IMG/VR virus record: IMGVR_UViG_3300037516_001783
Location: 43,936 to 107,935 of that record
Source: a virus
Direction: 5' to 3' (one strand)
DNA: 64,000 nt
The notes beneath the pieces are model-generated. The model made no database searches and was not told the DNA's origin. It worked only from the letters and a program-made list of their open reading frames with translations. Positions within the stretch are counted from its first letter, which is position 1; the number at the start of each line of letters is the position of its first letter. A program made the translations under genes and the position numbers. Below are positions 3,137 through 62,942 of this stretch, one piece after another.

Positions 3137-4702
3137 TTATTCAAACGGATTCTCACTATCATCTGTTGGCATATCAGAATAATCTTCTTCACCATCTTCA
3201 GGTTGTACTTCACCACCTTCTTGTTCACCACCCATACCCATTTGTTGTGCAGCCATTTTGAATTGTGAGTAAGTACTTGACATAACATTATCTGCAGCTG
3301 GGTCTTTAATTTTTGGATAACCAAGTTCTTCTCTAACTTCATTTAAAGTTGCAAAGTTGGTTACTTTCTTAACTGCCATATCCAATTCCTCTGACTGACT
3401 TAATGCATCTATTCCAACGAACGATAAATAATAATCCTTATCTAATTGGTTTACCACATATTTATTTAGTCTGGAAGCTATGAATTTTAAAAGTGGGTAT
3501 AAACCTTTGTCCTTACTATGTTTTAATTTACCTTCATTATTACTTTCAAATAATGCTCTGTTTTCAGCTCCACCACTTTGTGAGAAACCTATTTCTTCTG
3601 GAGATATACAGTAAATTGCACAAGCTGTTTTGATAAGGTAATCTTGCCAAGCCTTAAACTCCATGTCTTTATTGGCAGTTTGAAGGTTGATGAATTCCAT
3701 CTTTCCAGCTTCCATAACAGGAGTCTTCCAAGCATTATGAACTCCAGAAACCATTGCTTGCCACTGTTGTTTAAATTCTTGGATTTTTGCTGGTGAAACT
3801 GAACCGTCTACACGAATAATACCTTTAGGTGCTGAACCTTGTGAGAAGAATCTTCTGTTATACTCATCTGACCATAACATAGAAGTTATTGTTGTTACAA
3901 GTTCTTCAAGTTCTGAAACTCCGTAACCAAAATTATGAATATCACTTTCTGGATTTCTAACACCAAAACATAATTCCCAAGGATAAAAATCTGCTACAAC
4001 CTGACCATTGTCTACTTGACAAAATGACGGATAATAACCTTTGATTTTTTCTTTGTTTTGGTTTTGATAACTATCATCATCAACACTATCAGATATCCTA
4101 AAAGTAGATGCGTCTGTGGCAATGAATTCTATTGGTAAACCTTTTCTGTTGTAAATAACCTCAAAAGTCAATTGGTCAAAAACTAATGAATCTCTTGTTA
4201 CTTTTCTTATGAAACTGTCAAAATCATCTGCTTCCCAAGAGTTGTTTGTACCACAATTCAAAATAAATTGCGTTATTTCATCAACCCTAGCTTGTTCTGC
4301 TTTTGTTAATTTTGAGTTTTCCTTACCTCTTTTTAAAATCTTAAATCCTGTACTGAATTTATCCTTCTGAGGTTCAGCAAATGCGGCAACTTGATTTACC
4401 CTTGTCTTAATAATAGCACTAATAACAGGAACTCTTGCCATACGTTTTAAATTGTCGTATGACATCCCCATAGCTTTATCCTTGTAACCTAAAGAAGTTG
4501 CAAAATCTAATGGGTCAATTAATATAGATTTTCTATCAGAAAGTTCTCTGTTCTCTATGTATTTACTTGCGATTGCTTGTGCTTTTACTAACTCATTTGG
4601 GTCTGTAGAAGATAGTGCACTGCCAACCAAAGACATTTTCTTAGCTAATATCTTTTCCTCTAAAGTATTTAAGATGTTTATTTTTTCTATTCTACCCATC
4701 AC
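3137..4702 (-). CDS. Phage portal protein
   Basis: AIIKTRVNQV, RDSLVFDQ, GYGVSELE, NRRFFSQGSAPKG, KDMEF, SKDKGLYPLL, TLNEVRE: typical of large myovirus portals. Confidence 0.92.
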   Translation of the reverse strand: MMGRIEKINILNTLEEKILAKKMSLVGSALSSTDPNELVKAQAIASKYIENRELSDRKSILIDPLDFATSLGYKDKAMGMSYDNLKRMARVPVISAIIKTRVNQVAAFAEPQKDKFSTGFKILKRGKENSKLTKAEQARVDEITQFILNCGTNNSWEADDFDSFIRKVTRDSLVFDQLTFEVIYNRKGLPIEFIATDASTFRISDSVDDDSYQNQNKEKIKGYYPSFCQVDNGQVVADFYPWELCFGVRNPESDIHNFGYGVSELEELVTTITSMLWSDEYNRRFFSQGSAPKGIIRVDGSVSPAKIQEFKQQWQAMVSGVHNAWKTPVMEAGKMEFINLQTANKDMEFKAWQDYLIKTACAIYCISPEEIGFSQSGGAENRALFESNNEGKLKHSKDKGLYPLLKFIASRLNKYVVNQLDKDYYLSFVGIDALSQSEELDMAVKKVTNFATLNEVREELGYPKIKDPAADNVMSSTYSQFKMAAQQMGMGGEQEGGEVQPEDGEEDYSDMPTDDSENPFE

Positions 4703-5311: not shown

Positions 5312-6260
5312 CTTTTAATATATTAGACAATGTGAATTCACCTTTGTAAGTGAATGTATTTAATTTTGACTTAAATTCCTCCTGTAATTGTAATTGATGT
5401 TGTTCTGATAACCAACAAGTTTTCAATTGCATTAATTTAGCATTCCTATAAACTTTTTCAGCAAGAGCAACTTCATCTTTCTTAAATTTGAAGTGTGCAT
5501 TTATCAATAAAGCAATGAACTCAATATATCCACTATCCCAGAATTCACAACCCAATAGTGAATTTTCATTCGCTTTTTGTACAATTCCTTCTGCCGTTTT
5601 ATCACCCATTCCTGTACAGATATTCGGGACATTATCACCACCATCACCAACTAATATTTTCTTTAATGTGAACTCGTTGTTATTAACTTCTATGTATTTA
5701 ACCTTATCTGAATTTTTAAGTTGTACCATCTTACCTTTAGCATGATACAATTTCAAATTAGAGCTGTTATTACAATAAACAAAATTGTTACCTGTAACAG
5801 ACTGAACCATATCAGCGTCTCCAGTAACAATTATTTGTGAATCACTTTTACTGTTCTTAGCGAGTTGTTCAACCCAATAAACTAACAGGTCATCACCTTC
5901 TAAACCTTCTATGCTTGAAATGATAAATCCTCTGGTTGACATAAACCTTTTGAATTTATCCATTATAGCATAAAAGTTCTTCCAACCTTCTTCATCTGAA
6001 GGGTCTTTTATTTTATTTTTGTATTCTGGGTAGTACTCTTTTCTCCAAGATTTACCTAAGTCAAAAACAATTACAATCCTACCTATTTCTGTAAAATTAT
6101 TGATTGCGTAACAACAATCAGTGATACATTTTCTGAAGAAAATACCTTGTTGTTCTTTTGTTTGAAGTGCATCTGTTAAGGTAGCATCTTGTCCCCAACC
6201 CTTTAATACACTAACACTTTTATGGAATAAATAATTCCCATCAATAATTATATTGTTCAT
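5298..6260 (-). CDS. 5'-3' exonuclease / flap endonuclease (T4 RNase H-like)
   Basis: IIDGNYL, VFD..SWRKEYYPEYK, EGDD, TGDADM, GDGGDNVP..GMGDKTA. Confidence 0.92.
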   Translation of the reverse strand: MNNIIIDGNYLFHKSVSVLKGWGQDATLTDALQTKEQQGIFFRKCITDCCYAINNFTEIGRIVIVFDLGKSWRKEYYPEYKNKIKDPSDEEGWKNFYAIMDKFKRFMSTRGFIISSIEGLEGDDLLVYWVEQLAKNSKSDSQIIVTGDADMVQSVTGNNFVYCNNSSNLKLYHAKGKMVQLKNSDKVKYIEVNNNEFTLKKILVGDGGDNVPNICTGMGDKTAEGIVQKANENSLLGCEFWDSGYIEFIALLINAHFKFKKDEVALAEKVYRNAKLMQLKTCWLSEQHQLQLQEEFKSKLNTFTYKGEFTLSNILKDEQN

Positions 6261-6272
6261 TAAATGATTAAA

Positions 6273-7310
6273 TTAATAAAGTAAGAATGAGTTGTCTCTT
6301 TCACCAACATTTATTTTTGACCTTTGTTTACCAACACCAACTTTCATTTTCCAATACTTTTGGTATTCACATAACATCATTTCTATATTGTGTAATGTAA
6401 GTTCACCTGTTTCAGAAACTTCATATACCTTTTTAACCTTGTTCCAAGTTGTATATTTAAAATCTTCAACTTGTTCGTTAAACATGTCTCTTAGTAAACC
6501 TATGCCACCAATTATTTCCTTTTCTTGTAAGCTTGGAAAAATTAATCTCAACCCAACTTTACATCCTGGACCGACATTGGTGAAATCATTTTGGTCAAAT
6601 TTGAACTTGAAATTCTTACAGTAAATTGTTATGTAAGTTAAGTCTTGATATAATTCATGACTAACAAAATGTGAAACAGAAGATATCGTTTCAAAACATT
6701 TTATCAATGGTTTTACATCATTTCCTTTAGCAAGAGTTTCTATTTTACTTAACAACGAAATCATCTTTGGGATAACCTTATTACAGAAATGCCAATCTCT
6801 TGTATGACCTATAGAACCTACGCTGTTTGTACAGTATGCATTTGTAAAAGGATTCCCACCAGACATCCTAAATTCCTTCAAAAGTTCTTCAAAAACAATT
6901 GGGTCATATTCTTCTGGTGTTGGGATACCTCTGTATGGAGAGTTCTTAATTAACCAAGAAAACAACAAATTGTTGTTAAAGAATTTAAAGAAGAACATGT
7001 AATAATACAACAACTTTATATCATCATTTGCATACGTAATTGCAGAACCTTTTAAATTTTTAGTATCAAAAGGTATCATTATTTTACTAATCAAGAATTG
7101 ACTTTCCCTGTCTAATTCCCTGTAAACATTTGTGAATTTGTTGTTTAATAGAATTTGGTCTTTAGTCCAAGGTTTTGGTTCTTTTAAAAACCTTTTGAAC
7201 CAAATATCTTGCCTCTCTTTAACTACGTAGAAAAATTCTTCTAAATTCTCTTGACAGACATCTAAATCTTCTGAAGGCAAGAACTTCTCAAATGTATGAG
7301 GTTTTTTCAT
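6273..7310 (-). CDS. aGPT-Pplase1 / 5-hmdU DNA kinase helical-domain family protein (thymine hypermodification)
   Basis: ERQDIWFKR..EPKPWTKDQIL.NNKFTNVYRELDRESQ, FTNAY, GPGCKVGL, IEMMLCEYQKY match this family as I recall it; no P-loop is visible. Confidence 0.8.
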   Translation of the reverse strand: MKKPHTFEKFLPSEDLDVCQENLEEFFYVVKERQDIWFKRFLKEPKPWTKDQILLNNKFTNVYRELDRESQFLISKIMIPFDTKNLKGSAITYANDDIKLLYYYMFFFKFFNNNLLFSWLIKNSPYRGIPTPEEYDPIVFEELLKEFRMSGGNPFTNAYCTNSVGSIGHTRDWHFCNKVIPKMISLLSKIETLAKGNDVKPLIKCFETISSVSHFVSHELYQDLTYITIYCKNFKFKFDQNDFTNVGPGCKVGLRLIFPSLQEKEIIGGIGLLRDMFNEQVEDFKYTTWNKVKKVYEVSETGELTLHNIEMMLCEYQKYWKMKVGVGKQRSKINVGERDNSFLLY

Positions 7311-13040: not shown

Positions 13041-13140
13041 GATTAAATAATTAAATGTTCAAGCTTCATTGCTTAACATTACAAAGGTAGTAATAAAAAA
13101 ATTAAAAAGAAAACAGTCTTTAAAAGGAAAAGACTGTTTT
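13041..13140 (-). promoter_or_regulatory. Repeated early-promoter unit 1 (hairpin + Bacteroidota -7 element TACCTTTG + conserved leader)
   Basis: Minus-strand TACCTTTG at 13082-13089, upstream hairpin AAAACAGTC/GACTGTTTT, leader TGTTAAG..CTTGAACATTTAAT..TTTAATC-ATG. Confidence 0.8.
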
Positions 13141-13150
13141 GATTAAAATG

Positions 13151-16100
13151 TTATGCAGAACCATAACGAAAACTTATCCAACATTCACTACCAGAGTTCC
13201 AGTGAAAACCAAGTTCATTTAATTTAACTTTGTCTTCTTCTGAAACCTCTTCTTCTGTAATACCCATAATCATAAGTTCATCATGTTCACAATGAGTTGG
13301 GTAATCTTCATTTTTGTACTTTAAGAAGATTTGTAAAGCTTCGATTAATTTTTCCATAACTTAATTTTCAAAAGATTCTGGTTTGATTATCACAATGTAT
13401 TTTGGATTTAAACATGCTAACTCTTTATGATAAACAACAATTTCATCCTTAAAATGATTCGGATTTACTATGATACCATGTATATGGGTTATGTTTGAAA
13501 TTACTGTTGTTGTGATATTATTTACACTATTTAAATATTGACGAACTTCATCTTCAATGAATTCTTTTAAACGTGGAGAATAACAAATCATTAAATCTTT
13601 GTCTGCACAACCCTTGCTATTCAACATTAAAATAGCTTCTTTTATTTTGTCATTTACTTTCATCAACTTTTTTCTTTAAAGTGTTATTTGGTGGGACTTT
13701 CCCATCCTTAATGAATCTCAAGTCAACTGCTTTTGCCGCTTCTTTTTCACCTTCATTACCTACAACTGATTCTGGGAATAACCTTACAAATTGATAATTT
13801 GGGATTCTAGCTTTCCAAATTATCTCACCTGTTCTTATATCTTGGTATTTGTAGACATATTTGTACTTTTTAGACTTCGCTATTTTCTCAAGTTGAGTTT
13901 TTATCGTACCTATGTTATGAGTTGGTCTAATCATCTCTTCTTTTTCTTCAATTCTCTTTGCATTTTCCTTCTAACTGCTCTACCAGAAAGGTAATGCTGA
14001 GAACCATCTGGTTTGGTAACTATATGGTCTTCATAAGATAATAAAGGTCTGTCGTAAAATGATTTGTTAAAAATATCTGGAACAGGTTCAATCTTAAACT
14101 TACTCAATACAGGCTCTTGTAACTCAGAAATTTTTGGGTCGTAAGGTATTAATTCAAAATCCTTTTCAAGTGCTGTGTGGATTTGTGCCATACCTGAACC
14201 TGCAATACCACAACCTACAATGTAAAGTGCTTTTTTCTTGGGTCCTTCAAACAACTTAACATCTTTAGCAGTAATTTCTTTTTCAACATTATCTGTAGTG
14301 TCTAAAACTTTGATAACAGATTCTCCATTTTCAATCTCATCTCTCAACTTTTGAAAGTGATTTTCCCATTTATCCTCTTGGTGTGGCATTTTGAATTATG
14401 TTGTGAAGTTCTAATTTTAGATTGGCAATTTTCACATCTGCTTCCAGTAACTTACCTTCCAATTCAGATAATTGTCTCCTCAAAGATATTTCTTCATCTG
14501 TTGGTTTTACTGTCTCTTCATTTGTATTTATCAAACCTTCCTCTTTAATAAAATCATTGTAGTCCTTTAAAATTGATACATTTGACCGATGGTCATATTC
14601 ACCATTTTTTGTAAATGTGATAAAACATTTAGGTTCCTCACATACTGACAGAGTAAGAGGATAATCAGTGCCATGATTTTTGTTGTTTTCTAGAACTCCT
14701 ACAATTACTACTTTTTGACCTAATTTGAATTCCATGATTTCTCTAATTTATTTTGTTAAATTGTTAAATTGTTAATTAATAGTTTTAATTCATCAATTGA
14801 CGAAATTAAATGTCCCCAAGGATGAGTATCAGCATGCCATTTTTTACTTGACAATCCCATAAAAGTATCAGGAATTGGATAGAAATATTGAGGGATAACT
14901 GATTTTATGATTTTATAAATTTGTTGTTGATTTTCTTCAGTAACATTTATACACCAATCAGTTGTTAATTGTCCATCTCTAATGACTTCTTTTTCCACGA
15001 TTCCTCTAATTTATTTTGTCCATTCCAGCTTACTAATTTTTCATCCTCTGTGAGGTCAACCATTTCAAAATAACCTAACTCTTGAACGAGGATTAACTTT
15101 TCATTTAAATCCTTAAAAGCTTCAAAAAATTTACTACAACAAATATCCTCACCTTGAATTGAAGCTTTATGGCATGTGAAGTGTGTAGGATATGAATTGT
15201 CTTTTGGGTTGTTACAATTTTCAATAATCTCTTTTGCTCTTTCTACAGATACAATTCTGTCTTTGGTTAGTAAGCAATTTTTACAAGGTTTATTGTAGAC
15301 TTTTAACATGATTGATTAAAATTGTTAAGCAACAACATCAACGCTGTTTTGTTTTATAGATTGAAGTGCTTCTAAAATGTTTTTAACAACAATTTCTTTC
15401 TGAGATAACCAATCTTCGAGTTGTTTTATAGTAGGAACAGCAACTAAAGAAGTTAATCTACCACCTTGCTCTATATAAACCAACACTCACTTCAATATGT
15501 TCAGCAGTTCTCTCTTCTTTGATTTTGAACTTCTCAAGTTCCTCCATAGCCTTTTCAATAAAAGAAACCTTATCTTCAACAGTTCCGTCAATATTTAACA
15601 GAATATCATGAACTAAATTCAAACTCCTTAATGAATGTGCTTTAGCTAAATCTAAATCTTCTTTGTTTCTGAATACTCCAAAACCATGTTCTTGTAACAA
15701 GAAATTTGCTAAAGTTATAGGGGCTAAATCTTTGATGTTTTTGTTATCACTCATTAGAATTTTGTTTTAGTGAAGTAATTTAACAATTTAGAAAACCATG
15801 TTTGCTTGGGTCTATGCACTAATGGTTTACTCTTCATCTGCGTTTTCTAAGTATGCACAACTTTGTGATTCTTGTGCTCTTATTTTGAAAAGAACATTAC
15901 CTTCTTTGTCAACCACAATACAGTAATTACAATCAGCTTTGTTTATGAACAACCTTAAACCTCTAACTTCTTTAACAAGTTCAAAGGACATATCTTTGTA
16001 CCTTATTTCTGTTGAAATCTTATCCATTTTATTTAACAACTAAAATTAACATTTCATTTATATTAGTATCAAGCAAACACTTTTCAACTTTATATTCAAA

Positions 16101-19722: not shown

Positions 19723-19791
19723 CCACCCCAATAGGTCTCGAACCTACATCTCTCTGCTCAGAGTATTCTCACCGAATTAAACTACAGGGTG
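19723..19791 (-). ncRNA. tRNA-like element with a deleted anticodon loop
   Basis: Acceptor CACCCTG/TGGGGTG, D arm GTTT-AATTCGGTGA-GAAT, anticodon stem CTCTG/CAGAG closed by only AG, T arm GTAGG-TTCGAGA-CCTAT; 69 nt. Confidence 0.8.
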
Positions 19792-19794
19792 GTC

Positions 19795-19939
19795 AATTAA
19801 AAGTTTAACAGTTTCCTCGGTTTAGACGTCGTTCCCCTCCCACTGTATTTGTTCTACTTGTGACTTTCCCAACCCTTAGGGAATTCACTTTCTTTCAGTT
19901 AATTACTCTGAAGATTTCAAATCAAATTAACTTTTAATT
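19795..19939 (-). ncRNA. Putative structured RNA module directly upstream of the tRNA-like element
   Basis: Closed by a perfect 11-bp inverted repeat AATTAAAAGTT/AACTTTTAATT; internal hairpins TTCAG/CTGAA and GTGA-TTCCC/GGGAA-TCAC; locally GC-rich and largely non-coding. Confidence 0.55.
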
Positions 19940-32759: not shown

Positions 32760-33069
32760 ATCATGTTATCCTCAAAATATATCCCTTCATCAACAACTTC
32801 TATGCCTAAGATTTCAGAAATAGATTGAAAAGCTTCTGCTTTCTTGTTATTCTGTTCCATACTGTAAACATAATCCCTAGTAACGTGTAACGGCATATCA
32901 CTGTCAACTTCTAAAGTTATTATGACGTCAATCTTTTTTCTTTTACCACCCATGACTATATGAATAATCTATTGTTTTCACTTATTTTATCGTACTCCAC
33001 AAGCTTCTATATTAAATTTCATACACTTATATGAATTGGAACTTTTGAAGCTTTAAATGACGATATTTG

Positions 33070-33141
33070 CCCTGAACCCAAGAATCGAACTTGGACACCT
33101 CGAACAATAGGACGAGTACTCTACCATTAAGATAATTCAGG
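33070..33141 (-). ncRNA. tRNA-like element with an enlarged anticodon loop
   Basis: Acceptor CCTGAAT/GTTCAGG, D region TCTTAATGGTAGAGT, arm CTCG-TCCTATTGTT-CGAG (10-nt loop), T arm CCAAG-TTCGATT-CTTGG; 72 nt. Confidence 0.8.
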
Positions 33142-35169: not shown

Positions 35170-36295
35170 TTATAGAATTTCTAAATTTAACCTTCCTATC
35201 CCTTCCAGAAGCATTTCTAACATCTTCTTTGTATCTTTTAGAGTCTTTAAAACACCTCTTTCATAATCTGAAAGAAAGTCTCCTTCCGCAATTCCTTTTA
35301 ACCTTGAATCTATTCTGTTAAAAGCTTCCTGTAATCCTGTTACTTCCTCTGCAGTATCTTGTTGTTTTCCTGCTAAGTAAAGATTATTCCCACCTAAATG
35401 ATAATAACAATCCAGAAGTGAATCTTGTGCTTTTTGTTTTACCCAATCTATTTTCAGATGATGTACAAACAACTTTTCTGGTAAGATATCCCAAGTTTTA
35501 TTGTCATCGTAAACTTGTTTTGCGAAACGTCCCATTCCATCCCAAGACCTTGTTTGCTCATGTGACTTTAATTCATCAGCACTTCTTACAAGTAAATGTA
35601 AATCTACACCTATGTAGTGAGCAACTTGAAACATTTCAGATATCTCTTGGTGTATTTGAATACAATTACTTCTCATTGTATCGAAATCAATTTTTGGTAG
35701 TCCCATTGTTACTTAAGATTATGTTTCTTTGACAAACGAGCGATTAATTTTTGTTTTGCTAATTTTTCAAGCTTTTTAGACCTCATGACTCTTGCAAAAC
35801 TGTTAATGTAATTTTCAAAAAAATATTGGTCTTTGTCTACGTGGTAAGCGTGGAAAAATGGTATTGAACGAACATTGTCTTTGTAAATAATACAAAAATA
35901 ACCTTTCTCAAAGAAGTATTTACACTTACTTCTTATTTCCCTTAACAGCTGAACTTTCATGATTAAATTGATTAAATTTTTCAAAGTAATCAACGCTGTT
36001 ATGTAATTTACTTTGTTTTCTTTAACAACTCTAATTCCTCTATTCTAAGTTTTCTCTTTGGTGAGATTTTTGCTACAACAACACGGATACCAAACTCATC
36101 GTTCAATTTTTCCTTTAATTCATTGTACTTCTGAACATTTTTAACAATCTCTTCGTGATATGCTAAATTCATGTTTTTCAAAACCCTCATTTCTTCAATT
36201 ATTGGTCTTGTTACTTTACCATGAGGATATAACCTTTTGTCTGTTAAATCGAATAAATTTACATAAAAACCTTCTTCACACTTCCCTTGCTTCAT
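35170..36295 (-). other. Three hypothetical genes (35170-35706, 35709-about 35960, 36008-36295)
   Basis: ORF track. Confidence 0.6.
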
Positions 36296-36313
36296 AAAAT
36301 AATTAAATTTAAG

Positions 36314-36455
36314 TGATTCTGGTAGGAATCGAACCTACAACATTCCCTACTTGCTTACATGTTACATTTAACTACCTAGGATGTTGTTATTTGTGAACAA
36401 GAAACCATCAAGAATCCAATTTCGACGTTTAGAACCATTAAACGTCTACAGAACC
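36314..36455 (-). ncRNA. Oversized tRNA-like element (142 nt)
   Basis: Acceptor GGTTCTG/CAGAATC, perfect 8-bp D stem GACGTTTA/TAAACGTC, T arm GTAGG-TTCGATT-CCTAC, about 85 nt between the D and T arms. Confidence 0.75.
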
Positions 36456-36460
36456 ATATT

Positions 36461-36659
36461 AAAAATAAACAAACTCCCTTACCTATCAATAATTACTATC
36501 AAGGTTCTGTACTCACATCTTCATCGTTACTCTTCTAAAGTTTACGACTTATAGCTTTTCTTTGAGGATACCTTTCCGTAATTTGTCGACTTGGACGGTA
36601 CACTTACAATCAGGACATTAAGTGTAGGCAAATAACTCCTACATTGTTTGTTTATTTTT
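36461..36659 (-). ncRNA. Putative structured RNA module between two tRNA-like elements
   Basis: Perfect 14-bp terminal inverted repeat AAAAATAAACAAAC/GTTTGTTTATTTTT; internal hairpins TGTAGG/CCTACA and CACTTA/TAAGTG. Confidence 0.6.
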
Positions 36660-36660
36660 G

Positions 36661-36730
36661 CTCTGGTGAGAGGATTCGAACCTCTGTCTCCCACTGAAAG
36701 GACGGCACTCGCCAACTATGCTACACCAGA
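36661..36730 (-). ncRNA. tRNA-like element with a shortened anticodon/variable region
   Basis: Acceptor TCTGGTG/CACCAGA, D arm GCAT-AGTTGGCGA-GTGC, T arm AGAGG-TTCGAAT-CCTCT; only 19 nt between D and T stems (22-23 is normal). Confidence 0.8.
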
Positions 36731-36738
36731 ACCTTAAC

Positions 36739-36840
36739 AACTTATGTAAATTGCTAAGTACAGTTCCAAGTCAGCTTCACTTGAATTTCAGACTACTGTA
36801 CACCTGTATCTTTAAATAAACCACTTTTTACATAAAAGTT
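36739..36840 (-). ncRNA. Putative structured RNA module
   Basis: Terminal TTATGTAAA/TTTACATAA pairing; internal GTACAG/CTGTAC and CAAGT/ACTTG stems. Confidence 0.45.
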
Positions 36841-36901
36841 TCAACTACATGTTTTGTTTATTTCAAGAACCTTAGACTTGTTTTCACATAGGTCTAAGAT
36901 T

Positions 36902-37081
36902 TTAGTTGTTAATCAGTTCAGACCATCTTTGTATAGTTACTAAGAACATTTCCACAAAGTCACATCAATCCCTGATAGGCTTAGATTCTTCCTAATTTAC
37001 CTGACACAGACATTTCTCTGCATTTTCGTCACTTGATTGTTATAGAACAGACAAGAACAAATAAATTAGGTTAACAACTAA
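36902..37081 (-). ncRNA. Putative structured RNA module
   Basis: Perfect 11-bp terminal inverted repeat TTAGTTGTTAA/TTAACAACTAA enclosing non-coding sequence. Confidence 0.5.
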
Positions 37082-37137
37082 TTTTATTTCCTGTAACTCC
37101 AAGTTTGTTAATATTTACTTACTTCAAGTAGGAATTG

Positions 37138-37232
37138 TAGCTTTCAAGAGATTCGAACTCCCATCCTTTACAGTTTTCGATTCCTGTATCCTCATTACGA
37201 AATGAGTGCTTTATCCATTAAGCTAGAAAGCT
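37138..37232 (-). ncRNA. tRNA-like element (Arg-like D loop) with a 6-nt anticodon loop and a long variable arm
   Basis: Acceptor AGCTTTC/GAAAGCT, D arm GCTT-AATGGATA-AAGC, arm CTCAT-TTCGTA-ATGAG, variable stem TACAG/CTGTA, T arm GGGAG-TTCGAAT-CTCTT; 95 nt. Confidence 0.8.
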
Positions 37233-37235
37233 GTT

Positions 37236-37324
37236 ATAATTAGACATAACTCTTCTTTGGTTGAGTTCTTACCATTCTGGGTGGTGCTTACGAAGGTATT
37301 ACACCCTTTCTCCTCTCTAATTAT
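37236..37324 (-). ncRNA. Putative structured RNA module
   Basis: 9-bp terminal repeat ATAATTAGA/TCTAATTAT; internal GGGTG/CACCC and AACTC/GAGTT stems; ends 3 nt before the tRNA-like 5' end. Confidence 0.45.
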
Positions 37325-37338
37325 TTTAATTTTCATAA

Positions 37339-37493
37339 ATCAAAACAACCCTACTAACGGAGTCAAACCATTAACTAAAACATGAAATATTGAAAATTGC
37401 GACTTACAATATTTCATTAGTTTGTTAGTGATGTGACTTTCAAACTAATCTTTATGTTAAAGTTTCTTACACAAGAAGTACGGTTGTTTTGAT
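37339..37493 (-). ncRNA. Putative multi-hairpin RNA with a T-arm-like 3' hairpin
   Basis: 12-bp terminal repeat ATCAAAACAACC/GGTTGTTTTGAT; hairpins ATTAGTTTG/CAAACTAAT, GAAATATTG/CAATATTTC, AATGG-TTTGACT-CCGTT. Confidence 0.6.
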
Positions 37494-37626
37494 ATTATTT
37501 TGCAACTTATTTTATCTTTCGAAATACGTAGTTACCAAACGCCATGCCCCTACATGGTTTATATTTCCGATTGAAATATAGGTTGAACCTCAAACTTAGT
37601 TTCCTAGAGGTTTGAGATTTAGTGTC

Positions 37627-38457
37627 TTATTTTTTGATATTTATCATATCGTAGAAACCTGATTGAGTTACATACTGAGGCATAGGGCATCCAGCTTTCG
37701 TCCAACCTTCTATAGCTTTTTCTTTTATAGCTATTTCTCTTTCTTGAAGTAATAACGCTGTTACACCTAATGACCTTGCTCTACTTGCTTCAGAGTTTAA
37801 ATTAGCAAGTTCAATTTCTTTCTTGGTGTTAGCTAACTTTTTATCTAATATCGCACTTTCACCTTCAACCTTGTTTCTTTCAGCAATTTTAGCTTTCATT
37901 TCTGGTGTGAACGACAGTTGTGAAGAGTATGTTAGTAATTCGAACCCAGCCTTGTCAAATATCTTTCTAAGAGAATCTGTACACATTTTCTCATATTTCA
38001 ACTTACCACCGTTGTTCATTAATTGTTCATCCGATAATGAGTTAGAAATCTCTCTGGAAATATCTTTGATTCTTGGGTCTAATATTTGGTCTTCAATCAT
38101 ATCGAGGTCTATATTATCTCCTAAATGTTTATAATTGAAAACAATATTTATACCTTGACCAACCTTCGCTCTATAAGTATAGATAGGACTAACAAAGAAA
38201 TCGGTATTATCTGTAGAACTTATTGTTAATTTATCACCATAATCACCTTTTTGTTCATAAAGTGGAACTTGAAATAATTCACTTCCAGCAGTCCAAGTGG
38301 CAACTTTTCCTGTTACTCTATGGAAATCAGATTTACCATCCTTACCATAATTTTCCATCATTACACCTTCGTGGTTAGGTTTTACCCAATCATTACAAGA
38401 GGATAACAACATGATTGCTCCTAAGAGCATGACCAAATTAAATGCTACTTTTTTCAT
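37627..38457 (-). CDS. SPFH/Band-7 domain lipoprotein
   Basis: Lipobox LLSSC, V.P.HEGV, band-7-like core, C-terminal coiled coil, AIEGW..G.PMPQY. Confidence 0.8.
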   Translation of the reverse strand: MKKVAFNLVMLLGAIMLLSSCNDWVKPNHEGVMMENYGKDGKSDFHRVTGKVATWTAGSELFQVPLYEQKGDYGDKLTISSTDNTDFFVSPIYTYRAKVGQGINIVFNYKHLGDNIDLDMIEDQILDPRIKDISREISNSLSDEQLMNNGGKLKYEKMCTDSLRKIFDKAGFELLTYSSQLSFTPEMKAKIAERNKVEGESAILDKKLANTKKEIELANLNSEASRARSLGVTALLLQEREIAIKEKAIEGWTKAGCPMPQYVTQSGFYDMINIKK

Positions 38458-38631: not shown

Positions 38632-40320
38632 TTAAATCATTTCAACTCCGAAACCAGAGTTCATTAAGTAAATTCCTTTAATTGCTTGATGCATAGACAT
38701 TGCTGTATCGTCGTGCCCACTTGTTGCTGAAATACCTTTATTAGTATATGAAACAGAAGTAAGTTCGTTAAACAAGATATCTTTGATATTCCTACTGTAT
38801 TCACTTCCGATAGGGACTTTTATTTTACCCTTTTCAAATAGTAAAGACATTCCTGGAATCCCAGTTTTCAAGTCATTTTTGCTTTTTGCACTTGTAGCTT
38901 CATGTACAATTGGTAACCCTTCACTATCTGCTGCCTGACAGAACATTGCTTGAAATCCGTTACTTTCTATAACAATTATGTCTGGTTTGAAGTCTACATT
39001 TAAACCTCTCAACTTTCCTAATTGTTCTAAATAACTTTTACCATGCATCCTGTATTGGTTAATTAACCAAATATCACCTGAAGCGTCTAAACCTAAAACA
39101 GTATAAACAGTATAATCGGCTCCCACATTTGCAGAAATAGCTAAATCGACTCCTATAACAACTCTTTCAAAAGATATTGGGAAACTTTCTATGTTATGAC
39201 ACATTTCAAATTTATCCATACCAACCAACGATTTCTGTAAGATATTGTATGGGAATAAACTTGAATCATTTGAAACAGGTCTAACTAAGTGTTCTCTTGA
39301 GAAAGTTACAGAACCTTGTGATTCCTTTTTATTATAAAGTGTGTCAAAATTATACCTATTCCTCCATAATAATTTACCATCTGGAAAGATACTTGGGTAT
39401 TCAGCATAATAGAAAATTTTGTCTTTCTTTAACTGACCATATAAATCTTCAGCATGAAAAGGAGTCCCAACAACTTTTACATCACCTTGTGGGACAATCA
39501 TATTCATTATAACAGAATAGAAATAACTTGTGTATTTATTTCTTTGTTCTGCAGAATATAAATTTGATTCATGTAAAAAGTCATCTACTATTATAAAATG
39601 TGGATGGGCACCACGAGTAGATGCTCCGGCAGAAGAAGAAGTGATTGTTGAACCGTTCTTACATACAATCCTTGTTTCTGCCCAATTCCCATCACTTCTT
39701 GTTTCTGGTAATAACTTCTCTCTTAACAATTCATTTTCTTGAATTGTTGTTTTTAAAGTTCTAAGTAATTTTGTTGACTGACCTTTGGCGAAACTGAATA
39801 GATAACCTTCCTTTCCTACAGTACTTAACTCTCTTCGTTTTGAATCTTTTGTGTACCTATACAATTTCCATATAGGATATGCATTGGAGAAGAAGTGACT
39901 TTTACCATGGTCTCTGGCTGCCAGAATACACATATACTTAAAAGCTTGACAAGTTTCTGCCCATTCTATATGGTGCCAATTCATTTCAAATTCAGGCATA
40001 ACTGAACTTATGAAATATGTCAAACTTTCAACTCTTAAAGTTTCTTCAAATGAATCTGTTAATTTATCTAAATACAGATTTGTTATTGGGTTGTAACTTA
40101 ATTCAGAATTTGAGTGTTTGAAATTACCATAAACTGTACTGTATGTTTCAGTAACCAAATCCTGTAATAACCTGTCTACATCACCTTCAGAACCACCTAA
40201 TAATTGTGACAAACCTGAGTCGTCAAGATTTTCAATTATTTCCAAAGTAATTCTTAGACAGTCATCTAACTTATCGAACGGTATGGCACCTTGAACTATA
40301 TTCTTGTTAATTATATCCAT
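38632..40320 (-). CDS. terL: Terminase large subunit
   Basis: AARDHGKS, RGAHPHFIIVDD, VGTP, GVDLA...ADYTV, IESNGFQ, HDDTAMS. Confidence 0.93.
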   Translation of the reverse strand: MDIINKNIVQGAIPFDKLDDCLRITLEIIENLDDSGLSQLLGGSEGDVDRLLQDLVTETYSTVYGNFKHSNSELSYNPITNLYLDKLTDSFEETLRVESLTYFISSVMPEFEMNWHHIEWAETCQAFKYMCILAARDHGKSHFFSNAYPIWKLYRYTKDSKRRELSTVGKEGYLFSFAKGQSTKLLRTLKTTIQENELLREKLLPETRSDGNWAETRIVCKNGSTITSSSAGASTRGAHPHFIIVDDFLHESNLYSAEQRNKYTSYFYSVIMNMIVPQGDVKVVGTPFHAEDLYGQLKKDKIFYYAEYPSIFPDGKLLWRNRYNFDTLYNKKESQGSVTFSREHLVRPVSNDSSLFPYNILQKSLVGMDKFEMCHNIESFPISFERVVIGVDLAISANVGADYTVYTVLGLDASGDIWLINQYRMHGKSYLEQLGKLRGLNVDFKPDIIVIESNGFQAMFCQAADSEGLPIVHEATSAKSKNDLKTGIPGMSLLFEKGKIKVPIGSEYSRNIKDILFNELTSVSYTNKGISATSGHDDTAMSMHQAIKGIYLMNSGFGVEMI

Positions 40321-44798: not shown

Positions 44799-44900
44799 GA
44801 TTAAATTGATTAAATGTTTAAGATTCATTTCTTAACAATACAAAGGTAGTTCTTTTATTTTAAATAAGAAAACAGTATTTATCAAGAAAAGACTGTTTTC
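44799..44900 (-). promoter_or_regulatory. Repeated early-promoter unit 4
   Basis: TACCTTTG at 44841-44848, hairpin and conserved leader; implies the downstream gene starts at about 44798 (MKSSIILK). Confidence 0.75.
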
Positions 44901-45190
44901 TTAAATTTACCTTAAATTCGATGTCAATTTATATTGTATTGCCTTGCTGTATTTGGCTGTAATTGGCAATGCATTTGAATTTAAAAATGAATTGAAATTG
45001 TTCAAAGTTGGTTCGTTTATCTGTAACCAAGTTGTAATTTCAAAACCTGTAACTACATTAACAAACTGACTGCTAGTGTCATCGAATGAATTTACAATCC
45101 AATATTCAACTTCTGAATTTGGTAAAAATACTTCTAAAAATGAATAACCTATTTTAATTTCAGAAACGACTTTTGAAATATATATCCTTT

Positions 45191-62729: not shown

Positions 62730-62925
62730 AATTTAATAATTAAATGTCTAAGACTTATTTCTTAACAATACAAAGGTAGTAATTTTATTTTAAACAACAA
62801 AACAACATTTAAAATGAAAAGATTGTTTTTGTTATTTTTAATTGTTATCTCTTTTTGATAACATTACAAAGGTAGTAATTAAAAAATTAAAAAGAAAACA
62901 GTCTTTAAAAAGAAAAGACTGTTTT
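62730..62925 (-). promoter_or_regulatory. Tandem early-promoter units 5 and 6 upstream of the sigma gene
   Basis: TACCTTTG at 62771-62778 and 62867-62874; unit 6 is nearly identical to 13075-13140. Confidence 0.8.
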
Positions 62926-62942
62926 CATTATTTTATTGTATA

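Follow-up and report, generated by a model that had tools for sequence, protein, structure and literature searches.

In mitochondrial tRNA punctuation, in plant t-elements, and in MALAT1-mascRNA, transfer RNA (tRNA) shapes act as cut marks for RNase P and RNase Z and define the ends of the neighbouring RNAs; t-elements and mascRNA are mimics that do not decode. The focus of this study is a non-coding array of tRNA-shaped elements and stem-closed modules on the minus strand of a phage genome (IMG/VR record IMGVR_UViG_3300037516_001783), located at 36314-37620 of the 64,000-nt stretch that was analysed (hereafter the window), which is the final 64 kb of a contig of 107,935 bp; all coordinates of this phage are window positions. 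Elements T1 and T3 of the phage (see below) resemble t-elements and mascRNA in being non-decoding, whereas the latter are organellar or nuclear and cleavage of the phage array is a prediction only. No bacteriophage case of tRNA-mimic punctuation was described in the literature searched, nor were phage arrays of anticodon-less tRNAs with stem-closed spacers.

RNAC and RNAD (species 1 and 2 RNAs) of bacteriophage T4 are small non-tRNA RNAs derived from the transcript of its tRNA region, with no known role (PMC3014915, PMC9697503). Like the modules of the array, they are encoded between tRNA(-like) genes and on the same strand; their neighbours are functional tRNAs, whereas the tRNA-shaped elements of the array cannot decode, and the likeness is one of description, the array being known from its sequence alone. 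Our preferred reading, to which we assign a probability of roughly 0.45, is that tRNA mimics punctuate a long transcript, whereby stem-sealed RNAs would be released and the ends of messenger RNAs (mRNAs) would be set.

The initial annotation had pointed to 1.3 kb without a long open reading frame (ORF) in a densely coding genome, and this was borne out: in the genome, no internal gap without a minus-strand ORF of at least 80 aa is longer than 36296-37626 (1331 nt). The genome is otherwise dense (89% coding, with small ORFs abutting), nearly all of its genes lie on the minus strand, and the remaining apparent gaps were occupied by abutting small genes of 43-86 aa. Reading TGA as tryptophan (translation table 4), TAG as glutamine, or TAA as glutamine opened no frame in 36296-37626, and tblastn of the ORFs of relatives against the array revealed no pseudogene remnants. 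The short ORFs inside the array showed codon-usage log-odds of -0.23 to 0.01, versus 0.17-0.46 for the real small genes of the phage; a 37-aa ORF beginning with ATG across module M2 was rejected as a gene, since its codon usage scored as non-coding.

Five tRNA-shaped elements (T1 to T5) were found on the minus strand. At the three positions in the array where tRNA-like elements had previously been proposed, T5 (37138-37232) and T4 (36661-36730) were located by Rfam, and T3 (36314-36455) by its 7-bp acceptor stem and canonical T arm. The anticodon loop of T5 comprises 6 nt (8 nt with the last pair open) and its variable arm 25 nt, and T4, which is 3 nt short, has a 7-nt loop (UUUCAGU, with UCA as the triplet) on a mispaired stem and a variable loop of 2 nt; in T3, which has an 8-bp D stem, ~85 nt replace the anticodon and variable arms. 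The other two lie outside the array: T2 (33070-33141), whose anticodon loop of 8 nt has a U-U mismatch as its closing pair, and T1 (19723-19791), in which the anticodon loop is cut to 2-4 nt (a 2-nt loop or a tetraloop). Scores on the Rfam tRNA model (RF00005) were 43.6, 42.7, 38.0, and 37.8 bits for T5, T4, T2, and T1, respectively, all above the gathering threshold (29 bits), and these were the four matches in the window, with none elsewhere in the genome; T3 remained below (18.5 bits, by the T arm only). For comparison, an ordinary tRNA of the relative G001 scored 72.7 bits. A detector composed of a 7-bp acceptor stem, a 5-bp T stem, and a UUCRA-type loop returned, on the minus strand of the window, exactly T1-T5 and one probable false match inside a gene. 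ARAGORN (including the tmRNA [transfer-messenger RNA] and intron modes) called only T4 and T5, labelled tRNA-SeC(tca) and, with an offset, Tyr(gta), respectively. No canonical tRNA was found in the phage genome.

In Rfam alignments and constrained folds, the chassis of a tRNA was kept in all five elements: the 7-bp acceptor stem, the 5-bp T stem, the 7-nt T loop (UUCRANY), and the GG of the D-loop. The anticodon domain was abnormal in every one of them, none combining a 5-bp anticodon stem and a 7-nt loop with a normal (4-5-nt or class II) variable region. A C follows the discriminator in all five. The proposal of the initial annotation that these are non-decoding mimics is in keeping with the intact acceptor/T-arm elbow and the abnormal anticodon domain of each element, and on these folds the mimics appear convincingly non-decoding. 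The restriction of the damage to the anticodon domain (5/5) argues for selection on the half that is recognized by RNase P and RNase Z.

This pattern bears on two alternatives. One is that the region is debris, namely, a decaying tRNA cluster together with remnants of deleted small genes, in which the inverted repeats are by-products of recombination or of insertions and deletions and no RNA has a function. Neutral decay should strike the acceptor and T arms as often as the anticodon domain; these arms are intact in all five elements. Furthermore, 1.3 kb of junk would be unexpected in a genome with such a coding density, and identical copies of the phage sequence were present in lake-water metagenomes from several studies (at low depth, and with no natural variants). 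We consider debris rather unlikely, and the observations that speak for it are given with the relatives below. The second alternative is that the tRNA-shaped RNAs themselves are the products, which would soak up or mislead host factors, or toxins of defence systems, that bind tRNA at its acceptor end or elbow, and that the spacers only insulate folding and processing. It is favoured by the confinement of visible selection to the top halves of the tRNA-like elements, both here (5/5) and in L009, a relative in which three of three tRNA-like elements near a shared gene keep the top half and have a defective anticodon domain. It is also favoured by T4, which has the acceptor stem, the T arm, and 27 identical nt in common with a genuine phage tRNA-Asn in L023. 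On the other hand, it leaves the excess of long perfect closing stems and the strong fold of module M1 (both described below) unexplained, no target system was identifiable, and the position of T1 and T3 in mRNA leaders fits processing better than the production of decoys. We consider a product role of this kind rather unlikely.

Because of the match with tRNA-Asn, T4 is, as judged from sequence, derived from a real tRNA with a remodelled anticodon arm. A role for T4 as a UGA suppressor or recoding signal was considered and rejected, TGA ending 10 of 120 ORFs. When the 3' halves of T3 and T4 were used as exact search patterns, only ordinary tRNA-Asn genes of unrelated phages were matched, and the patterns for T5 and T1 gave no match. 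A 968-nt freshwater contig matched only the T-arm regions of T4 and T5, at a distance of 161 nt from each other there; it probably derives from a different phage in which a related tRNA(-like) gene pair is present. T2 is followed, 4 nt on, by a stem-closed element read by eye (AUAUCGU..AAGCUUC / GAAGCUU..ACGAUA), and the two occupy 32985-33141.

The spaces between these elements are filled by modules on the same strand. Closing stems of 12, 9, 11, 9, and 14 bp had been claimed for modules M1 to M5, respectively, and each was found to be a perfect inverted repeat at the claimed place. M1 (37339-37493) contains, in addition to its 12-bp stem, a ~35-bp imperfect hairpin (minimum free energy, -45.6 kcal/mol); M2 (37236-37324) is closed by 9 bp; M3 (36902-37081) has an inner perfect helix of 9 bp within its 11-bp stem; M4 (36739-36840) has a 9-bp stem that is perfect in sequence and not favoured thermodynamically; and M5 (36461-36659) has the 14-bp stem, of which the 5' arm is A-rich and the 3' arm is U-rich. 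Outside the array, a purine-rich module of 145 nt upstream of T1 (19795-19939, minus strand) is closed by an 11-bp stem; this stem overlaps the stop codon of a 58-aa ORF.

The initial annotation had itself raised the possibility that such closing stems are equally common in shuffled AT-rich sequence. The array, which is AT-rich, contains seven perfect inverted repeats of at least 9 bp (gap of 50-200 nt), versus 1.27 ± 1.11 in 1000 dinucleotide shuffles (P ~0.001), and three of at least 11 bp, versus 0.10; they are thus not equally common. Among windows of equal size from the same 64 kb, the array belongs to the top 0.5-1.8% by its inverted repeats. On inspection by eye, the closing stems showed no AGUA/GAA clamp.

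The positions of the stems relative to the tRNA-shaped elements were also as proposed. M5 begins 1 nt after T4 and ends 5 nt before T3, thereby spanning the gap between the two, and M2 ends 3 nt before T5. Taken together, a perfect stem ends 3 nt upstream of each of T1, T5, and T4, and another ends 5 nt upstream of T3. The stem before T4 is the pair 36912-36904 / 36742-36734, and the thermodynamic fold prefers a local hairpin, ending 2-3 nt before T4, over the stem of M4. There are 118 such stems in 64 kb, from which the chance of an end within ~10 nt upstream is ~0.02 per site by our own arithmetic; it was observed at four of the five sites. The same geometry was seen in L009, in which a long hairpin ends 4 nt before a 120-nt tRNA-like element. 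Since the genes in an ordinary phage tRNA array (L021) are spaced by 3-7 nt, equal to the spacings of the modules, the modules, which tile the gaps between T5, T4, and T3, appear to occupy "tRNA slots".

This geometry also bears on the alternative that the region acts at the level of DNA, for instance as an origin of replication, a site for packaging, or a hot spot of recombination close to the terminase gene. The region is AT-rich, ORF-free, and rich in inverted repeats; a 9-mer recurs in it, and the gene for the large subunit of terminase (38632-40320) is ~1 kb away, all as might be expected of such an element. However, the positions of the stems are tied to the ends of the tRNA-like elements, the latter are strand-specific and co-oriented with the genes, and no GC-skew inflection was found at the site; we regard this alternative as highly improbable.

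The modules differed greatly in the strength of their folds. When folded alone, the z-scores were -6.33 for M1 (none of 200 shuffles being as stable), -1.88 for M2, -2.09 for M3, -0.28 for M4, and -1.45 for M5 (-2.35 for T3), and the pair probabilities of the closing stems in a partition-function fold of the whole array were ~1.0 for M1, ~0.99 for M3, ~0.67 for M2, 0.06 for M5, and 0.0 for M4. The closing stem of M5 formed when this module was folded alone; in context, it would need the flanking tRNA-like elements to be folded or removed first. The description of the modules as structured RNAs, therefore, holds well for M1, reasonably for M3, and weakly for M2 and M5, and is unsupported for M4. 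That they are mutually unrelated was confirmed, no similarity being found among them, and no module has a second copy in the genome. Rfam (searched at gathering thresholds and with E up to 10 over 36000-37900) gave only tRNA, with no other family near a gathering score, and readings of the modules as 6S-like, tmRNA-like, or CRISPR-repeat-like were unsupported by Rfam or by their anatomy.

Several described RNA families share one or another feature with the array. In YrlA and the other Y RNAs of bacteria and phages, which are bound by Ro60 (Rsr) and occur in some phages, a tRNA-like module is joined to a long closing stem. In the array, by contrast, the tRNA-like elements have open, normal acceptor ends and the stems are in separate modules; with no TROVE gene (PF05731) in the complete genome and no Rfam match to Y RNA or YrlA, this identity was rejected. 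GOLLD and ROOL are large non-coding RNAs that are often encoded next to tRNA genes in phage genomes, and the first sighting of GOLLD was in lake metagenomes. Each forms one large fold, whereas the array is a tiling of separate small units, and no match to their Rfam covariance models was obtained (cmscan, E up to 10, 36000-37900), so that they were also rejected. A retron non-coding RNA, with its a1/a2 closing stem, was rejected because no reverse transcriptase (RVT_1) was found in the genome. The tRNA scaffold is reportedly a laboratory design of Ponchon and Dardel. T3 and the 120-nt element of L009 (6927-7046), which is comparable to it, may be likened to natural tRNA scaffolds, in that an insert of 60-85 nt would replace the anticodon arm of a tRNA chassis. 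Engineered tRNA scaffolds serve to produce recombinant RNA in Escherichia coli, according to one report (PMC3753655). Theta (minimal HDV-like; HDV, hepatitis delta virus) ribozymes lie within 5 nt of the ends of tRNAs in phages of Bacteroidota and Bacillota, often beside suppressor tRNAs, and have been proposed to process the 3' trailers of tRNA (PMC10879173). They are characterized by a nested double pseudoknot that begins at the 3' end of the tRNA, with a catalytic C in J4/2, whereas the array modules are 90-200 nt in length with closing stems joining the 5' and 3' ends; neither Rfam nor this layout lends support to such a ribozyme here, no search with a dedicated descriptor having been made.

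Three features of the array had been missed in the initial annotation: a pair of conserved hairpins, with an apparent AUG-UAG remnant of a gene start after each of them, a reused 9-mer, and a shared 13-nt leader. The first hairpin (hpA; 37586-37619, minus strand) has a 10-bp stem with a conserved 14-nt loop, directly follows the stop codon of an upstream gene encoding a 276-aa protein, and forms in the whole-array fold. The second (hpB; 36868-36901, minus strand) is its paralogue and is followed ~20 nt later by AAAACAUGUAG; homologues of hpB were found in the relatives L008 (at about 4006-4034) and L057 (8904-8932). When hpA, hpB, and the L008 copy were aligned, two stem positions changed on both sides (C-G/U-A/A-U and A-U/G-C), with 96.7% of cells paired; this was the sole covariation in the region. 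Neither hairpin was accepted as an intrinsic terminator, because there is no U-tract on the minus strand and a terminator scan flagged hpB on the plus strand only. Canonical hairpin-plus-U terminators are present elsewhere in the genome; three near-identical hairpins (GAAAACAGUCUUU / AAAGACUGUUUUC; 62880-62940, 13098-13152, and 44865-44903), each with a U-run after it on the minus strand, have the appearance of a conserved family of canonical terminators in this phage. The 9-mer (UUAACAACU/AGUUGUUAA) has three copies and one variant in the array and 18 copies in the genome; it supplies the stem arms of M3 and gives alternative pairings around M3 and M4.

Other short sequences in the array resemble the starts of genes. 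The sequence CAUGUAGG (37549-37556, minus strand), in which AUG is immediately followed by UAG, is the first of three in the array, and three of its seven minus-strand copies in the 108-kb genome fall there; AAAC[AC]AUGUAG, or a near variant, is likewise present three times. In L008 (4053-4157) and L057 (9087-9191), a conserved gene encoding a 34-aa zinc ribbon (CxxC...CxxC) lies directly downstream of the hpB-type hairpin, and the position of its start is occupied in the window only by AUG-UAG.

Relatives of the 276-aa gene with 71-86% identity lie on long contigs of up to 204 kb. In IMG/VR, only L008 (83%) and L009 (75%) carry this gene, and they share little else with the phage; both hold stem-closed units, and L009 also has anticodon-less tRNA-like elements. 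Two blocks that are contiguous here (CUUGAAGUAAGUAAAUA and UUAACAAACUUGGAGUUA; 37094-37128, minus strand) are common to L008, where they are split by an insert of ~145 nt. In L057, an insert of ~120 nt with an A-rich/U-rich closing stem lies between the hairpin and the leader of the zinc-ribbon gene, and is missing in L008. Because of these differences, the stem-closed units are regarded as cassettes that are present or absent between conserved flanks. In L009, a repeat of ~100 nt (CAUUUCUACUG..UAAGUUGUUGUA..UACAACAA; 5796-5913 and 6822-6922) was also noted after two successive gene stops, and its second copy forms a ~28-bp hairpin ending 4 nt before a tRNA-like element. No match was obtained by blastn against INPHARED phages, scans of GTDB genomes found nothing, and the relatives of the terminase in IMG/VR and JGI metagenomes (43-47% identity) had neither tRNAs nor an array. 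A shared 17-mer gave 33 matches, of which none was similar to the array more widely, except L049 (the contig of L008).

Such presence/absence polymorphisms between conserved flanks are what would be seen if the modules were small mobile cassettes, either MITE-like (miniature inverted-repeat transposable element) or carried by recombination, that insert beside hairpins or tRNA-like sites, with the closing stems as their terminal inverted repeats. The reuse of the 9-mer as stem arms also points in this direction. However, the single occurrence of each module, the difference in terminal repeats from one module to another, and the failure to find a transposase, an integrase (including a tyrosine integrase), or a reverse transcriptase in the genome make this origin very unlikely.

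A number of results weigh against punctuation of a long transcript by tRNA mimics. Only M1 was clearly more stable than its shuffles, the closing stems of M4 and M5 were disfavoured in the whole-array fold, and the GC-corrected stability of the array in sliding windows was only 0.66 standard deviations below the genome mean. The content downstream of the 276-aa gene in L008 and L009 differs from the array, and no module was alignable with either, so that no covariation stands behind any module fold. Of the RNA-processing or RNA-binding partners that were searched for (Ro60/TROVE, RNase III, CCA-adding enzyme, and RtcB), none is encoded by the phage. Moreover, the AUG-UAG sequence at the position of a real gene start in L008 and L057 suggests that part of the array may be the leftover of lost gene starts. 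These observations are shared among the alternatives: the vanished gene start, the wholly different content of contigs with the same neighbouring gene, the behaviour of the modules as insertions or deletions between conserved flanks, and the thermodynamic weakness of M4 and M5 speak for debris, and the weak z-scores in four of the five modules, with spacers that are not alignable with relatives, speak for the tRNA-shaped RNAs as the products.

In the preferred reading, punctuation of a long transcript by tRNA mimics, the minus strand of the array is probably transcribed within a long unit that extends from the terminase genes through the helicase gene. Along the minus strand from 41222 to 30282, a simple consensus scan detected nothing that resembles a terminator, and for this reason the array is probably part of a long transcript; promoter motifs at the array (Bacteroidota TAnnTTTG and sigma-70) were uninformative. 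With the acceptor stem, T arm, and elbow retained, the tRNA-shaped elements would be recognized by the RNase P and RNase Z of the host. Cleavage at their 5' ends would fall to RNase P, and the formation of their 3' ends to RNase Z or exonucleases; host enzymes would have to do the cutting, because the phage encodes none of the enzymes that were searched for. Since a helix ends 3-5 nt before the predicted cut sites, and since only 1 nt separates M5 from T4, the spacers thus set free (M1, M2, M3, and M5) would have both ends held in a stem, which may confer resistance to exonucleases. Transcription, cleavage, and stability of these RNAs, and any function that they may have in trans, are what we infer from the anatomy of the array.

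The same cuts would also set the 3' ends of upstream mRNAs and, at T1 and T3, short 5' leaders of downstream mRNAs. A 13-nt leader, AAAUUUAAUUAUU (36298-36310, minus strand), lies in the interval from T3 to the AUG (36295) of the following gene, and this sequence occurs only twice in the genome, after T1 and after T3, each time just before the next AUG; the proteins encoded downstream of the two copies are unrelated. This shared leader suggests that the punctuation may also serve the neighbouring mRNAs. The inserts would be lineage-specific cassettes.

The phage genome is a single contig with a CheckV completeness of 100% and a G+C content of 31%. Its terminase large subunit has 39-47% identity with the corresponding proteins of Bacteroides phages DAC19-23 and uncultivated viral contigs. 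The array is a non-coding accessory island of this virulent-type lake phage. Its upstream neighbour, the 276-aa gene (37627-38457), is lipoprotein-like and belongs to PHROG 200, with Pfam Band_7/SPFH in relatives; it is 75-86% identical on contigs that otherwise share almost nothing with the phage, and appears to travel as a mosaic accessory gene beside variable non-coding inserts.

A more specific version of the proposal is a punctuated operon, in which anticodon-less mimics would release exonuclease-proof cassettes that can be swapped rapidly, and the cassettes or the mimics would be decoys against defences that sense RNA or target the ends of tRNA. The decoy function, like the antitoxin mimicry also suggested in the initial annotation, is speculation, and we judge this version as a whole to be distinctly unlikely; if true, the array would be nature's equivalent of the tRNA scaffold designed in the laboratory. 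Turnover of inserts in the manner of cassettes is what would be expected of accessory, possibly counter-defence, elements. If the region is debris, the array would nevertheless reveal which portions of a tRNA persist for the longest time in the genome of a phage. If the tRNA-shaped elements are cut marks, the phage would use the tRNA punctuation known from organelles, with non-decoding mimics, to shape its mRNAs together with sealed small RNAs. This would provide a testable function for the "pseudo" or "undetermined" tRNAs of phage genomes, and may be a lead on the unexplained small RNAs of phage tRNA clusters, such as RNAC and RNAD of bacteriophage T4.

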